The notes under the pieces: model-generated | Seen by the model: the letters and a program-made list of their open reading frames with translations, nothing else | Told to the model about the DNA's origin: nothing | Database searches by the model: none | From: a virus | Lineage: Duplodnaviria > Heunggongvirae > Uroviricota > Caudoviricetes | Reading direction: 5' to 3' (one strand) | Virus record (IMG/VR): IMGVR_UViG_2703718816_000013 | DNA: 15,311 nucleotides | Position numbers and translations under genes: made by a program | Part shown: one piece after another, positions 549 to 8,700 of the stretch | How the letters are laid out: each line of letters begins with the position of its first letter | How positions within the stretch are numbered: position 1 is the first letter of the stretch

Positions 549-574
549 ACCCGCTGTGATGGCGGGTTTTTTAT
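549..574 (+). terminator. Rho-independent terminator of the lom-like gene
   Basis: GC stem cccgc (550-554) pairs with gcggg (562-566) around a 7-nt loop, followed directly by a T-run (567-572), about 25 nt after the stop codon. Confidence 0.75.
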
Positions 575-609
575 TGCCCGTACAGGGCAAAAACCGTAAA
601 TTATGCGTG

Positions 610-625
610 GGTGCCTTTCGGCTGA
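610..625 (+). promoter_or_regulatory. Putative 5' fold-back element of a hok-family mRNA, complementary to 945-961
   Basis: ggtgcctttcggctga (610-625) is near-perfectly complementary to tcagccgatatggcacc (945-961), which lies downstream of the small hok-like ORF. Long-range 5'-3' pairing (fbi) is a hallmark of hok mRNAs. Confidence 0.4.
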
Positions 626-756
626 TGGCTGGAGGGAGAACCTGAAGGCCTGATGTGGAAAGGCCCCGAGTCAACTTAACGTTAACCCGAGGCCCTGACC
701 ATCATACCTTAAGCAAGTAGAAGATTAGCGCCTCTCTGTAAAAGGAGTCAAGCGCT

Positions 757-897
757 ATGTCGCAAAAATCGCTTATCACCGTCACAATTTGTATGACGGT
801 TATCTTCACTATCTGGATGTTGCACGGTTCACTGTGTGAGTTCCGGCTGAATTTGTGGGGAGCGGAGTTTGCGGCGTTCTTACAGTGTAAGCAGTAG
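757..897 (+). CDS. Hok/Gef-family type I toxin (small membrane peptide, 46 aa); not in the supplied ORF track
   Basis: ATG at 757 is preceded by a strong SD (aaaggagt, 741-748). Translation is MSQKSLITVTICMTVIFTIWMLHGSLCEFRLNLWGAEFAAFLQCKQ: an N-terminal hydrophobic helix followed by SLCE-x-R...E-x-AAF, matching the conserved Hok/Gef/RelF C-terminal signature (Hok: ...SLCEIRYRDGHREVAAF...). Stop TAG is at 895-897. Confidence 0.65.
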   Translation: MSQKSLITVTICMTVIFTIWMLHGSLCEFRLNLWGAEFAAFLQCKQ

Positions 898-906
898 GAA
901 AACCGC

Positions 907-961
907 GACGGGGACGAAAGTCCCCGTCAACTGGTTGCTGAGGTTCAGCCGATATGGCACC
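907..961 (+). promoter_or_regulatory. 3' structured region of the putative hok transcript (perfect 8-bp hairpin plus 3' fbi partner)
   Basis: gacgggga (907-914) pairs with tccccgtc (921-928) around a 6-nt loop, 10 nt after the hok-like stop, with no U-tract after it. The 945-961 segment is complementary to 610-625. Confidence 0.4.
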
Positions 962-964
962 TGT

Positions 965-1248
965 TTGCAGAGTATGTTTTATACAATGCAGGCTGACAGA
1001 GAGAGGTAATATTTATCAATGGTAAATAATAACTACAGAAAATGTTTTGTTTTTTCTGAGTAATACTGGTGTTATTTAGGGGAAGTTTTTGATGCGTATT
1101 GCATCCTTGTGATTTTAATTGTTAATTTTTCTTAACTCATTGATTTTAATATTTTATTTGCCTTGTTATTGTGAGTAGTATCCCTGAAGACATTTGCGTT
1201 CCGAATGTCAACATATTTATAACATGATTTAACATAAGGGTACACATC
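965..1248 (+). promoter_or_regulatory. AT-rich upstream/promoter region of the adhesin gene
   Basis: Visibly AT-rich stretch with a repeated gattttaat motif (about 1111-1119 and 1142-1150) immediately upstream of the autotransporter start. Typical of horizontally acquired, H-NS-type silenced promoters. No specific -35/-10 assigned. Confidence 0.3.
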
Positions 1249-5767: not shown

Positions 5768-8700
5768 ATGGCCTATTCAGAGGAACAGCGTCCTGAGGCG
5801 CAACTCGGTAACCAGAATCGTAACAGCCTGAACATTCAGCAACCCGGCGAAACTGACAGCTATGAAGCATTTTTCTCTGATCCGAATCGCTGGAAGGATA
5901 ACAGTACGTCGTTCAGCCTGGGCGATGTATTGCCAACAATGGGTAAAGGTTTCGCCCAGTCCGTCCGGGGAACAGGGGAAATGGCCCGTGGACTCGGTGA
6001 TGCGATGATTCAGAGCCCGGTAAAAACAGGGGCGCGTATTTTAAATGAGTTCAGCCGTATGGGGCTGCCGGGTGTCGCAACTGTGCAGGATATTTTTGCC
6101 GGTGGCAGCAGGGGGGCTGATGAGGTCATCGATACCCTGCCTGATGGCAAAAACGCGGTTACTGATACTGTCGGTAAAGGTCTGAAGGCAACCGGTAAGG
6201 CTGTCAGTGATGGTGCTGAAGCCACTGATGAATGGCTGACCGGTAAGATGTCGCCGGGTGCAGTTCGTGCGCTGAATACGCCGATGACCGAAGGCTATGA
6301 TGATTCTGCGGTCTGGGTGGCGAAGGGTGTAAACCTGATTGGTGCGCTTGTACCTGATATGGTTGTTGGCGGTGTGGCTAAAAAGGTGGGTGATGTCACA
6401 CTGCGAAAAATGCTGACCGCCGGGCTGGAGAAAAAATACATCGCGGCAGGGATGCAGCCGGAAAGAGCCACGGCACTGGCAGCAGAAGCTGTCGATAAAA
6501 AAATGCCGGATTTATTCCAGGCGGGCCTGATCACCCATTCCACAGCCAGTGCACAGGGGCAGAGTGCAATGGCGGCAGCAGATGCTGTTCTTAATGCGGA
6601 TTACTCTGAGCTGGCGCAGTCACCGAAATTTCAGCAGACGTTTTTGTCCATTGACGCCGACCCGCAGCACGCACAGCTTACTGATCGCCAGAAAATGGAT
6701 CTGGCAAAAGAGCGTGTTGCCGATGAGGTGCGCGCGCAGCTGGCAACCGATCCTGAATTGCTGGCTGTGAATGCCATGGCGGCAAAACTGGGTGACGCAC
6801 AACTGTTTAATCTGGTGACACGAGGCACAGCGAAGACCGTTAAAAGCGGCATTGTCAGAAATGCCACGGAACAGGGGGCGATTAATGCGGCGCAGGGCGG
6901 CTATTCACGCTATCAGGAAAACACGGCATTGCGTGAGACCGCCGGAATGGATGTGTCACCGTGGGAGGGCGTGGCTGACGCAACGATCGAAGGTGCAGCC
7001 TTTGGTGCTGCGATGGGGGCTCCATCCGGTGCGGTTGCCGGATATCGTGGCAGACGTCAGGCCGCAGAAGAAACCGCCATGCGTGATGCTGAAACCGTGC
7101 AGCAGGACGACGCAGCCCCGCAACCAGAATCTGTTGATCCGGTGGCGCAGCAGCGTGAATCCATGCAGGGCATGAATCGCGAGCAGCTTCTGGAGCAGTA
7201 TGCTGATGCGGATATGGCAACAGAGGGTGACGCATCCGCAGCTCATCGCCGGGAAGCTGCCAGCCAGTTGTTGAATGAACTGGACGAACAGGCGAAGCGA
7301 CAGGCTGTGATGAATGAGCTGAAGGCGAAGCCGCGTTCTGAACTGCTTGAGGAATACCGCAGACTCAGCCAGAAAGAGGGGCGCACCGAGACTGAAGAAC
7401 AACAGTTTCAGGCAATACGAGAAGTCATTCGCCCACAACAGGAAGTGACGCCGGAAGCACAGTCACAGCCTGAAAATGCGGAGGATGGTAACGGGAGCAT
7501 TTACCCGACGGTGCGGTTCCGGGACCCGAATGAAGTCCGCATTGAAATTAACGGGAATGGTGCGTCCAGACCAGCGGAACGCATTGAAAAGGTGCGCCCG
7601 GACAACCGTTATTTCACGGATGAGAAAAGCGCCATGGGGAGTGATGTTTTCCGTAATGCCGCCGCCACCGGCCTGAAACCGTCCGTAGTGAAGAAAGGCG
7701 AGAATCAGTATGCCGTTGAAATGGATAATCCTGCGTTCTCTGAAGATGTGGCAACGGAAACCATTAACACCCTGGCTGACGGAGAGCGTATTGCTGATGC
7801 TGACCCGATGGAGCAGCCCGCGTTCATGCGTGACCCGCGATTCCGTGGTTTCACGGGGGATGATACGGAGGTACAGGCCCGCCTTGCCCGTGGCAATGCG
7901 CCGACGGCGGAGGAGCTTGTACGTTCACAGATGGCTGAAGGTGATGCCGGTCCGACAGCACAGGAGTTAACTGAGCGTCCACGCCTGCCCGCTCCCGGCG
8001 ATATTCATCCCGGACAGGGATATCCGTTACCGGGAGAGGTGGCGCGTACGCCGGATGAGAATCAGGCCGGACGTGGTGGTCGTTTTACCACAACCGGTGA
8101 GGTTAAGGGCCAGAGTTTCCAGAAAGGACAAGCTCCGGCACCGGAAAACGCCGCTGGTCGCCAGGGGGAAACACTCGAGGGTGAAATGGTTCGTCGTGGT
8201 CTGCCGTCACCGGATGCGCAGAACGCGACAGCACCGGTACGTGAAGGGCTACCGGCTCCTGACATTGCGCGTAATGTTCGTATGCCTCAGCCTGAATCAC
8301 TTCCCCGCACTGTACGGGACTCACTGCCTGAGCTTGCACAGCAGGCAGAAGTACGCCGACAGGCCGGAGGAAATCGTGACATCCCGCAGCCTGAGACAAT
8401 CGCACCTGAATCTGAAACAACTGTCTCTACTGACAGGGAAGCTACCGTGCGCGGAGGTGAAGTCAGGGGCAAAAAAATTGAAGACTTTGGCGAGGAAATT
8501 AAAGGGGCAGCCAAACACCGTTATGCACAGCTTGCTGAAACACTGGGTAAAACGCTGGAAGACAGGGATTATGCCACGCAGCCGCTGAGCAAACTGTTCC
8601 CGAAACCGGACTACGCAAAACTGGCGAACGAAGGTGCCGATGCTGACACTCTGGCAATGATAGCGCTGTATCGTAGCGATATTCCGGCGAAGACGAAACA

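Follow-up and report, generated by a model that had tools for sequence, protein, structure and literature searches.

Directly 3' of lom, the window (the whole 15,311-nt stretch of viral DNA analyzed here) very probably carries a hok/sok-type type I toxin-antitoxin cassette, a moron belonging to a 46-aa Hok subfamily ("cluster 72"). The host element is a 933W-like prophage of the Stx-phage type, and the locus is an ordinary known element that public databases and a catalogue already list; its one deviation, a regulatory one of modest interest, is that there is no mok leader frame. The original prediction, made from the sequence alone, had assigned the locus to the hok/sok family, and this call is now backed at the protein, RNA, and synteny levels, the locus being collinear with the annotated hokW/mokW/sokW genes of phage 933W. 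It had also described the locus as unannotated, which is true of the ORF track available at the time but not of public records, as RefSeq annotates the CDS in an identical genome as "Hok/Gef family protein" (WP_000078907.1) and the peptide appears in a published catalogue. The features of the sense strand are the following.

574-602, plus strand: putative hok promoter read from the sequence, with -35 TTGCCC (574-579), a 17-nt spacer, and -10 TAAATT (597-602)
609-962, plus strand: full-length hok mRNA, 5' end placed by homology and 3' end at least through fbi
609-625, plus strand: tac, the 5' partner of the fold-back helix, pairing with 945-962 in the minimum-energy structure
658-667, plus strand: ucb-like box, the alternative partner of tac after removal of the 3' end, from complementarity and the fold of a truncated RNA
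726-757, plus strand: hairpin sequestering the hok Shine-Dalgarno (SD) sequence and start codon (726-731 with 752-757 and 734-737 with 744-747)
742-747, plus strand: hok SD sequence AAGGAG, 9 nt 5' of the ATG
757-897, plus strand: hok-family toxin gene of 46 aa (MSQKSLITVTICMTVIFTIWMLHGSLCEFRLNLWGAEFAAFLQCKQ), with an ATG start and matches in Pfam, NCBIfam, and PHROGs
907-928, plus strand: 3' stem-loop, the presumed stop for 3' exonucleolytic trimming (907-915 with 920-928, 9 bp, GAAA loop)
945-962, plus strand: fbi, the 3' partner of tac, from folding and complementarity

The 46-aa ORF and the SD sequence that had been proposed for the toxin are both present, and the Hok/Gef signature seen in the peptide is borne out by profile searches, with a match to Pfam family PF01848 (HOK_GEF) of 33.2 bits, above the gathering score of 22 (E = 4e-8). 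Each of the 32 family members in the alignment matches the same profile. Within their alignment, positions 6 to 22 form a hydrophobic stretch, C27 is invariant, and S25, L26, and E28 are nearly so; the C-terminal tail of the peptide reads G-A-E-F-A-A-F-L-Q-C-K. PHROGs places it in phrog_251, which belongs to the moron category (E = 2.8e-24). The best NCBIfam match is the HokA equivalog NF007290, with a score of 38.4 bits that is far under the cut-off of 89, and on this score we rejected the peptide as a HokA orthologue. By profile, the nearest named Hok is HokA of E. coli K-12 (b4455, accompanied by mokA and sokA), with which it shares the residues M-x-QK, W-M, SLCE, and AAFL-x-C; the difference is that an in-frame mokA is annotated in K-12. 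Identity reaches 40% to the HokA-type peptide, 37% to HokW, and 30% to Hok of plasmid R1.

Across 258 pairs the median dN/dS is 0.26, falling to 0.14 in the C-terminal half, and the 46-codon frame is unbroken in 24 of 26 distinct loci, comparisons that demonstrate purifying selection on what is predicted to be a small membrane-toxin gene. The exact peptide is listed as 72_1589 in Table S2 of the Hok catalogue preprint of Escalera-Maurer et al. (doi:10.1101/2025.08.07.668861), for which it was cloned (LRP157) and tested by arabinose induction; the full catalogue comprises 1,264 peptides in 61 clusters. Only 19_179, 60_1482, and 69_1540 were non-toxic among the 45 homologs tested there, so 72_1589, which is not one of these three, counts as reported toxic.

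Transcription of hok is predicted to start at G609, 6 to 7 nt past the -10 hexamer. Every related locus preserves a TAnAnT hexamer 6 nt 5' of GGGTGCC, as does hokW (TAGAAT), while the -35 hexamer lies outside the conserved cassette, because homology between the different genomic contexts begins only at about 590; a consensus promoter scan did not flag the putative promoter at 574-602. At the 3' side, the homology shared with 933W and with every other context stops just past fbi, and no dedicated terminator is visible 3' of fbi in the window or in the 933W locus. The validated hokW is likewise without a terminator right after fbi; in P2-like prophages, the relatives carry a strong intrinsic one 25 to 40 nt past fbi.

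Fold prediction, which had been put forward as a check on the transcript, returned a strongly structured RNA, with a free energy of -151.9 kcal/mol for 609-965 (z = -6.27) and the 5'-3' helix formed in the minimum-energy structure. The complementarity that had been noted between the two ends exists, but it is not one continuous stretch of 16 to 17 nt. It consists of two blocks separated by a small internal loop, the first of 7 bp (609-615 with 956-962, including a G609-U962 wobble) and the second of 8 perfect pairs (618-625 with 945-952). The energy of the tac/fbi duplex is -27.4 kcal/mol, compared with -14.8 +/- 3.0 kcal/mol when the 3' segment is shuffled, and none of 1,000 shuffles was as strong; over the 25 loci scored, the values all fall between -23 and -31 kcal/mol. 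The GGGUGCC core of tac does not vary among the 26 loci, and 11 sequences have changes on both sides of the second block. We claim no co-evolution of tac and fbi beyond these column counts, since the 7-bp core does not change, G-U pairs are tolerated in the remainder of the helix, and pairing each tac with its own fbi or with those of relatives gave indistinguishable energies (-27.3 kcal/mol for cognate and -26.2 kcal/mol for non-cognate combinations).

The alternative partner of tac is the ucb-like box, to which 610-619 is 90% complementary (9 of 10 positions). In the Rfam sok model this pairing appears as the first stem, and it forms in the fold of an RNA truncated to 609-925. The hairpin over the SD sequence and start codon has an energy of -14.1 kcal/mol (in 25 of 26 relatives it lies between -12 and -18, and for hokW it is -17.1); it is helix 7 of the consensus structure and is paired in 99.4% of cases, the changes in it being one-sided (wobble) only. 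The perfect hairpin described earlier after the stop codon is indeed there, with 9 pairs instead of the 8 that had been counted, and 5 of the 9 show compensatory changes among the 26 loci. On the minus strand, this same stem-loop resembles a terminator, with a U-run after it.

These elements persist across the subfamily. The consensus structure of 26 distinct related loci contains 75 pairs, 16 of them with compensatory changes, and standard pairs fill 97.9% of the pair cells, compared with 37 to 42% when the partners are slid; the covariation score was reached by none of 500 shuffles. At gathering thresholds, Rfam gave no match anywhere in the window. A permissive scan with covariance models, the kind of search that had been suggested for this region, does find RF01794 (sok, which covers the hok mRNA leader) over its full model length, with positions 1-157 of the model aligned to 609-770 and an E value of 7.9e-6, but the score of 33.9 bits misses the gathering score of 59. 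A failure of covariance models to hit the region had been named as grounds for refuting the prediction, and in formal terms half of this applies. Relatives score 43 to 54 bits, the subfamily 34 to 54, and hokW 113.5, and we attribute the sub-threshold score to divergence of the whole subfamily and not to a lack of homology. As the gathering score misses the entire subfamily, RNA-based surveys count too few hok loci in pathogenic E. coli and in Salmonella.

On the opposite strand, two further elements can be predicted.

722-751, minus strand: predicted Sok-like promoter at the position homologous to that of sokW, with -35 TTGACT (751-746), an 18-nt spacer, and -10 TAATCT (727-722)
655-715, minus strand: predicted Sok-like antisense RNA of about 59 to 61 nt, running from 715 to about 657, from its fold and homology with sokW

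The 5' end of this RNA was set from the distance to the -10 element in the annotated sokW, and its predicted position falls inside the bracket of 630-740 on the minus strand where an antisense RNA had been expected. It would have a single-stranded 5' tail of 14 to 19 nt and a hairpin of 16 bp (696 to 660), after which comes no more than UUUCC, and it is predicted to fold into a shape like that of SokW of 933W (-29.8 kcal/mol; z = -5.2). At the homologous position, the sokW promoter reads TTGCCT-17-TAACCT, and the candidates in relatives combine TTGCTC or TTTACT with TAACCT or TATCCT across a spacer of 17 nt. Conservation within the leader is lowest (majority fraction 0.67) at 697-715, where the Sok 5' tail is predicted to bind, as is to be expected of a specificity determinant in genomes that carry up to 8 copies.

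The antisense side is where the strongest competing reading applies, that of a solitary toxin gene, in which a real hok mRNA has no functional antisense RNA and folding alone (tac/fbi and the SD hairpin) restrains expression. We consider it improbable. It would fit the consensus scan of the minus strand, which flagged no promoter, the Sok-like candidate with 8 of 12 consensus positions being under the threshold and its -10 matching at only 3 of 6. It would also agree with the absence of a canonical Sok target in a locus without mok, and the conservation of the putative Sok promoter is confounded, since the same bases are constrained as parts of hok mRNA stems. However, the candidate is at least as close to consensus as the sokW promoter (7 of 12), whose mutation unmasks toxicity (PMC8621323), the minus-strand RNA has the SokW-like fold described above, and every one of the 26 loci preserves T1, A2, and T6 of the -10, as TAACCT, TATCCT, or TAATCT.

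The one unusual trait of the cassette lies in its leader. The original prediction had found no convincing mok-like frame, and a scan of the three frames, with in-frame N-terminal extensions included, agrees with it. In the window and in the 933W copy, the frames open across the hok start have neither a canonical nor a near-cognate start codon. None of the 26 loci has frame 0 open, and a read-through ORF with an SD sequence occurs in only 4 of them. The mokW, mokA, and mokC genes are built as in-frame N-terminal extensions, and the same scan recovered mokW in the hokW control. A conserved substitute leader ORF was rejected as well, as the starts and stops are scattered and the ends lie anywhere between -111 and +137, counted from the hok ATG. 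There is an even chance that the 46-aa Hok subfamily (cluster 72) has dispensed with Mok, with activation and Sok-like repression following another route.

The lack of a leader ORF running into the hok start could also mean that the loss of mok left hok untranslatable, a decaying and silent relic that hitch-hikes in prophages. In R1, translation of mok up to the hok SD sequence is mandatory for hok translation (PMC9841398), and some copies of the cassette are damaged (such as L026, which lacks tac). We regard decay as even less probable than a solitary toxin, as it does not agree with the low dN/dS and the frame kept intact in 24 of 26 loci, with RNA helices that keep pairing through compensatory changes, with the spread of the cassette to several unrelated mobile-element contexts and to 1,672 of 5,426 E. 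coli genomes, or with a peptide that is reported toxic (doi:10.1101/2025.08.07.668861).

For a working hok/sok-type cassette, homology with R1 hok/sok and hokW-sokW suggests the following course. The full-length mRNA would be stable and translationally inert until slow 3' trimming to the hairpin at 907-928 removed fbi, upon which tac would pair with ucb and the leader would be exposed. A short-lived antisense RNA, made leftward from TTGACT-18-TAATCT (about 715 to about 657), would pair with the leader at 655-715, and RNase III would cut the duplex. Under such antisense-directed cleavage, Hok would be made only on depletion of the antisense RNA, for example, by loss of the element or prophage induction, and would then depolarize the inner membrane. 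RNase III degradation of the duplex and slow 3' processing have been described for R1 (PMC9841398) and, genetically, for hokW-sokW (PMC8621323). The activation step is not explained by thermodynamic folding, as constrained folding predicts an SD accessibility of 0.32 whether the mRNA is full-length, truncated, or bound by Sok.

With no mok frame, the antisense RNA cannot work by blocking mok translation. Two routes are the most likely for its action here, destruction of the mRNA alone, driven by RNase III, or occlusion by the Sok 5' tail of an unstructured ribosome-loading stretch at 697-725, which lies just 5' of the SD hairpin and coincides with the predicted target of that tail. The second route has a possible model in tisB/IstR-1 of E. 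coli, studied by Darfeuille et al. in 2007, where a toxin mRNA with a structured ribosome-binding site reportedly needs an unstructured standby site upstream, and the antisense RNA is said to bind this standby site and not the ribosome-binding site. The two systems have no sequence relationship, and we offer standby loading of this type as a hypothesis, by analogy, for how a mok-less hok might operate. Should the lack of mok prove functional, the subfamily would be a natural case for asking whether hok control truly needs translational coupling, and for learning what an antisense RNA does without a leader ORF to block.

Among the closest known systems is hokW-mokW-sokW of 933W and Sakai prophage 5 (Takada et al. 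2021, PMC8621323), which belongs to the same phage type; 933W carries both loci. Their RNA layouts are collinear, beginning with tac (GGGUGC) at the 5' end and ucb, continuing through the segment complementary to the Sok hairpin, a Sok -10 hexamer at one and the same aligned position, and the hairpin over the SD sequence, and closing with the 3' stem-loop and fbi (GCACCC). The shape of the antisense RNA (like the other Sok elements, predicted in our case) and the PHROG are also shared. HokW, in contrast, has 51 aa (MKQQKAM...DYESEK) and only 37% identity to the 46-aa peptide, and hokW has an in-frame mok start, an ATG at -57 with GAGG 8 nt upstream, where the present locus has stops and no start codon. 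In 933W, hokW-sokW occupies 58.46-58.79 kb, near the end of the phage and on the other strand, 13 kb away from the cassette after lom (45.46-45.87 kb). Positions 590-1000 of the window correspond to 45,440-45,900 of 933W (AF125520). The idea that the two are one and the same, that is, the characterized hokW-sokW of Stx2 phage Sp5/933W, could draw on one phage record that labels the CDS "MokW-like host killing" and on the shared PHROG, but it has next to no probability and is refuted by position, strand, and sequence, including the absence of the hokW leader sequence from the window. A chance ORF with chance complementarity in the intergenic region 3' of lom, for which the shortness of the ORF and the missed Rfam gathering score might speak, is just as far-fetched and is refuted by the Pfam match (E = 4e-8), the duplex that no shuffle equaled, the fold (z = -6.27), and the covariation over 26 loci.

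The likeness to R1 hok/mok/sok (PMC9841398) includes a small membrane toxin, the tac/fbi lock, the tac/ucb alternative, a sequestered hok SD sequence, and an antisense RNA opposite the leader, the last being only predicted at this locus. The differences are a peptide identity of 30%, the absence of mok, and the absence here of a separate terminator hairpin after fbi.

As a discovery, the locus adds little, as it is annotated in RefSeq, resides in a well-studied Stx phage, and codes for a peptide that is catalogued and reported toxic. Literature searches with the peptide sequence or accession returned nothing, and no description of the RNA layer of the locus was found in the searchable literature. 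The preprint that defines Hok cluster 72 (doi:10.1101/2025.08.07.668861) deals with coding sequences only and explicitly sets aside Mok, Sok, and mRNA structure, and the RNA anatomy and the absence of mok are not in it. An RNA-seq/RIBO-seq paper on EDL933 gives Rfam sok matches that are not assignable to this locus. No report of hok loci without mok was found in the literature searched, although Steif and Meyer 2012 ("The hok mRNA family") may mention them. Stx phages of the 933W type have two different hok-family cassettes, and the deletion of hokW-sokW only, which reportedly halved the release of Sp5, left some Hok activity in the prophage.

The same DNA is present in the 1,672 complete E. 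coli genomes counted above and in 198 phage records, 933W among them. A search for related loci from the peptide alignment yielded only 7, three of which were probably from contaminated assemblies. In Stx phages the cassette follows lom, in P2-like prophages it follows ogr, and it also occurs in other places; homology stops at its borders, with only about 590-962 shared with all related loci. Damaged copies, like the one without tac, are found among them.

Searches with the 46-aa peptide and folding of its transcript support the original prediction of a hok/sok-type type I toxin-antitoxin locus, through the RNA anatomy, the Pfam match, and a permissive match to RF01794. The features of the locus are as follows.

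549-567: clean intrinsic terminator after the Ail/Lom gene (sequence and scan)
715 to ~657, minus strand: predicted Sok-like antisense RNA (homology with sokW)
751 to 746 and 727 to 722, minus strand: predicted Sok-like promoter, TTGACT, 18-nt spacer, TAATCT (aligned with sokW)
726-757, plus strand: hairpin burying the SD and AUG, -14.1 kcal/mol (local fold)
742-747, plus strand: SD AAGGAG, upstream of the ATG at 757
757 (ATG) to stop 895-897, plus strand: hok-family ORF, 46 codons (sequence)
907-928, plus strand: stem-loop after the hok stop, nine perfect pairs, GAAA loop (sequence)

The proposed Hok/Gef ORF with its SD was confirmed, as the peptide (MSQKSLITVTICMTVIFTIWMLHGSLCEFRLNLWGAEFAAFLQCKQ) scores 33.2 bits (E = 4e-8) with Pfam HOK_GEF, whose curated threshold is 22 bits. 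Its PHROG assignment is phrog_251 ("MokW-like host killing," moron category; E = 2.8e-24). The top NCBIfam match is the HokA equivalog, with a score (38.4) far under the cutoff of 89, which rules out a HokA orthologue. The peptide is a different member of the Hok family, sharing 40% identity with a HokA-type peptide, 37% with HokW, and 30% with Hok of R1. Purifying selection acts on the coding frame (dN/dS: median, 0.26; C-terminal half, 0.14). A 13-pair helix (761-773/861-873), 98% conserved over 26 loci, joins the first hok codons (UGUCGCAAAAAUCGC) to codons 35 to 39 (GCGGAGUUUGCGGCG) and may be the reason why MSQK and AEFAAF are nearly invariant at the nucleotide level.

Gene and peptide were both known before. 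A Hok homolog catalogue, limited by design to coding sequence, with Mok, Sok, and mRNA set aside, lists the identical peptide as 72_1589, a member of a high-abundance cluster, and reports its cloning as LRP157; 42 of the 45 homologs tested were toxic, and 72_1589 is not among the three named as nontoxic (bioRxiv 10.1101/2025.08.07.668861). Our only additions are the RNA anatomy, the separation from hokW-sokW, and the missing mok, the last being a modest, testable regulatory question.

The 16- to 17-nt complementarity claimed between the mRNA ends is real, involving the 5' tac element (609-625) and the 3' fbi element (945-962), but it is made of two blocks, one of 7 bp and a perfect one of 8 bp. 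This duplex reaches -27.4 kcal/mol versus -14.8 ± 3.0 when shuffled (0 of 1,000 shuffles as low), and it closes the fold of the 609-965 RNA (-151.9 kcal/mol; z = -6.27). The hairpin after the stop, described before as 8 bp, is perfect and has one pair more. Nine of ten positions of 610-619 are also complementary to 658-667, which corresponds to the alternative tac/ucb pairing in hok mRNAs. The covariance-model search was only partly positive: Rfam gave no match in the window at gathering thresholds, and in permissive mode RF01794, named "sok" yet modeling the sense-strand hok leader, aligned full length to 609-770 (33.9 bits; E = 7.9e-6).

In an alignment of 26 distinct loci, RNAalifold predicted 75 pairs, of which 16 show compensatory changes, and standard pairs filled 97.9% of the cells, versus 37 to 42% with partners slid by 1 to 3 columns; the covariation score was reached by none of 500 shuffles. 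Compensatory changes occur in five of the nine pairs of the 3' stem-loop and two of the six of the Sok-hairpin complement, and the SD hairpin varies by wobbles only. The GGGUGCC/GGCACCC core of tac/fbi is invariant and, because it never varies, uninformative on covariation either way; three adjacent pairs show both-sided changes in 11 sequences, partly through register shift. The 5'-3' duplex lies between -23 and -31 kcal/mol in all 25 loci scored.

Among the hok loci of Stx phages, only hokW-sokW of Sp5 has been studied by experiment; its toxin has 51 aa and starts with MKQQKAM (PMC8621323). In 933W it is found at 58.46 to 58.79 kb, annotated with mokW and sokW, 13 kb from the lom-adjacent locus and on the opposite strand. 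Position, strand, and the hokW leader, which was not found in the window, rule out identity of the two loci. With this different locus 13 kb off, 933W-type phages therefore carry two distinct hok cassettes, hokW-mokW-sokW (L019, 933W 57.8 to 59.7 kb) and the lom-adjacent one (L003, 933W 43.0 to 48.4 kb), so the published hokW-sokW deletion spared a second Hok gene.

The RNA layout of hokW-sokW is collinear with that of the window locus, and this collinearity guided our placement of the antisense RNA. The sokW start lies 7 nt beyond TAACCT, itself preceded by TTGCCT 17 nt upstream; in relatives, the promoter position is occupied by TTGCTC or TTTACT and, after a spacer of 17 nt, TAACCT or TATCCT. 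From this homology we infer the promoter and the RNA in the window; the RNA is predicted to fold like SokW, into a single-stranded 5' tail and a 16-bp hairpin (-29.8 kcal/mol; z = -5.2). The putative promoter agrees with consensus at 8 of 12 positions and the promoter scan did not pick it up, the hairpin is trailed by UUUCC only, and hok mRNA stems constrain the same bases.

In R1, hok translation requires translation of mok, a leader frame, up to the hok SD (PMC9841398), and in loci such as hokW and mokA, mok extends the hok frame upstream. A three-frame scan including near-cognate starts confirmed the absence of a mok-like frame: none of the three window frames that stay open over the hok start contains ATG, GTG, TTG, CTG, ATT, ATC, or ATA, and the same script recovers mokW in the control. 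The codon aligned to the mokW ATG is ATC, with TAA three codons on. Frame 0 is closed 6 to 36 nt upstream of the hok ATG in 26 of 26 loci. Only 4 of these have a different frame in which an SD-preceded leader ORF continues past the hok start, and leader ORF starts and stops are scattered over related loci. The SD hairpin matches that of hokW in stability, and predicted SD accessibility is the same in full-length, truncated, and Sok-bound states. The canonical model thus accounts neither for the switching on of translation nor for the antisense block. Conservation within the leader is lowest at 697-715, directly before the SD hairpin, where the Sok 5' tail is predicted to bind; this would fit a specificity determinant combined with a ribosome standby site and would also fit relaxed constraint at a former mok start. 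We found no description of a mok-less hok locus in the searchable literature, one pertinent paper being outside its reach.

The window opens within the Ail/Lom outer membrane protein gene, which ends at 525. The 441-bp query 560-1000 matches 1,672 of 5,426 complete E. coli genomes, in up to 8 places per genome, with 100% identity in strains ST866 and ST865, where RefSeq calls the ORF a Hok/Gef family protein (WP_000078907.1). A further 198 matching records are from phages, most of them Stx-converting (933W and VT2-Sakai included), and there the cassette always follows directly after lom; the original 933W record leaves this ORF unannotated. Relatives of 46 aa occur in E. coli, Shigella, Salmonella, E. 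albertii, and Citrobacter, at P2-like prophage ends after ogr, by a type-B L31 gene, or by YafO-like or HicAB genes, sometimes in tandem. Homology is limited to ~590-962 in every comparison; the cassette is a discrete mobile module. Near-identical enterobacterial cassettes in a Xanthomonas pisi contig (L004, 857 bp), a Planococcaceae MAG (L005), and Vagococcus sp. (L007) are most simply explained by assembly contamination. In Salmonella, L020, L021, and L022 hold tandem subfamily cassettes (genes 701-841 and ~1191-1335, ~490 nt apart) adjoining a YafO-like toxin gene, L026 has unrelated sequence replacing tac and the 5' leader at ~510-600 with the CDS intact and is probably disabled or rewired, and a strong match to Rfam STnc540 (L028, 1008-1189, minus strand; 178 bits) lies directly downstream of a cassette at a P2-like prophage end.

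Homology with 933W ends at ~966, just after fbi. There, 933W continues with L0129 and the window with an AT-rich spacer of ~290 bp and a YadA-like trimeric autotransporter gene (RefSeq start, 1258; ORF list, 1249-2451); in 966-2451, cassettes appear to have been swapped at the 3' border of the module. Further on, an identical genome annotates an 8.4-kb ORF for an LPD5 domain-containing protein (5768-14152) and an integrase-core, transposase-like gene (14241-15311, minus strand).

In relatives from P2-like prophages, fbi is followed 25 to 40 nt on by a strong terminator, and most copies outside Stx phages (L014, 1601-1628; L006, L007, L013, and L020 to L034) have a strong, often bidirectional one. 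None was found after fbi in the window or 933W, and the validated hokW likewise lacks one right after fbi. This part of the cassette is missing from both the window and 933W, and in 933W the L0129 start codon aligns with the linker ATGAAC. With CGGTTT(T)CCTT behind it, the hok 3' stem-loop (929-906) scores as a minus-strand intrinsic terminator, as it does in every relative examined (L003, 2871-2848; L014, 1543-1518; L028, 873-850), and could be a barrier to convergent transcription entering hok.
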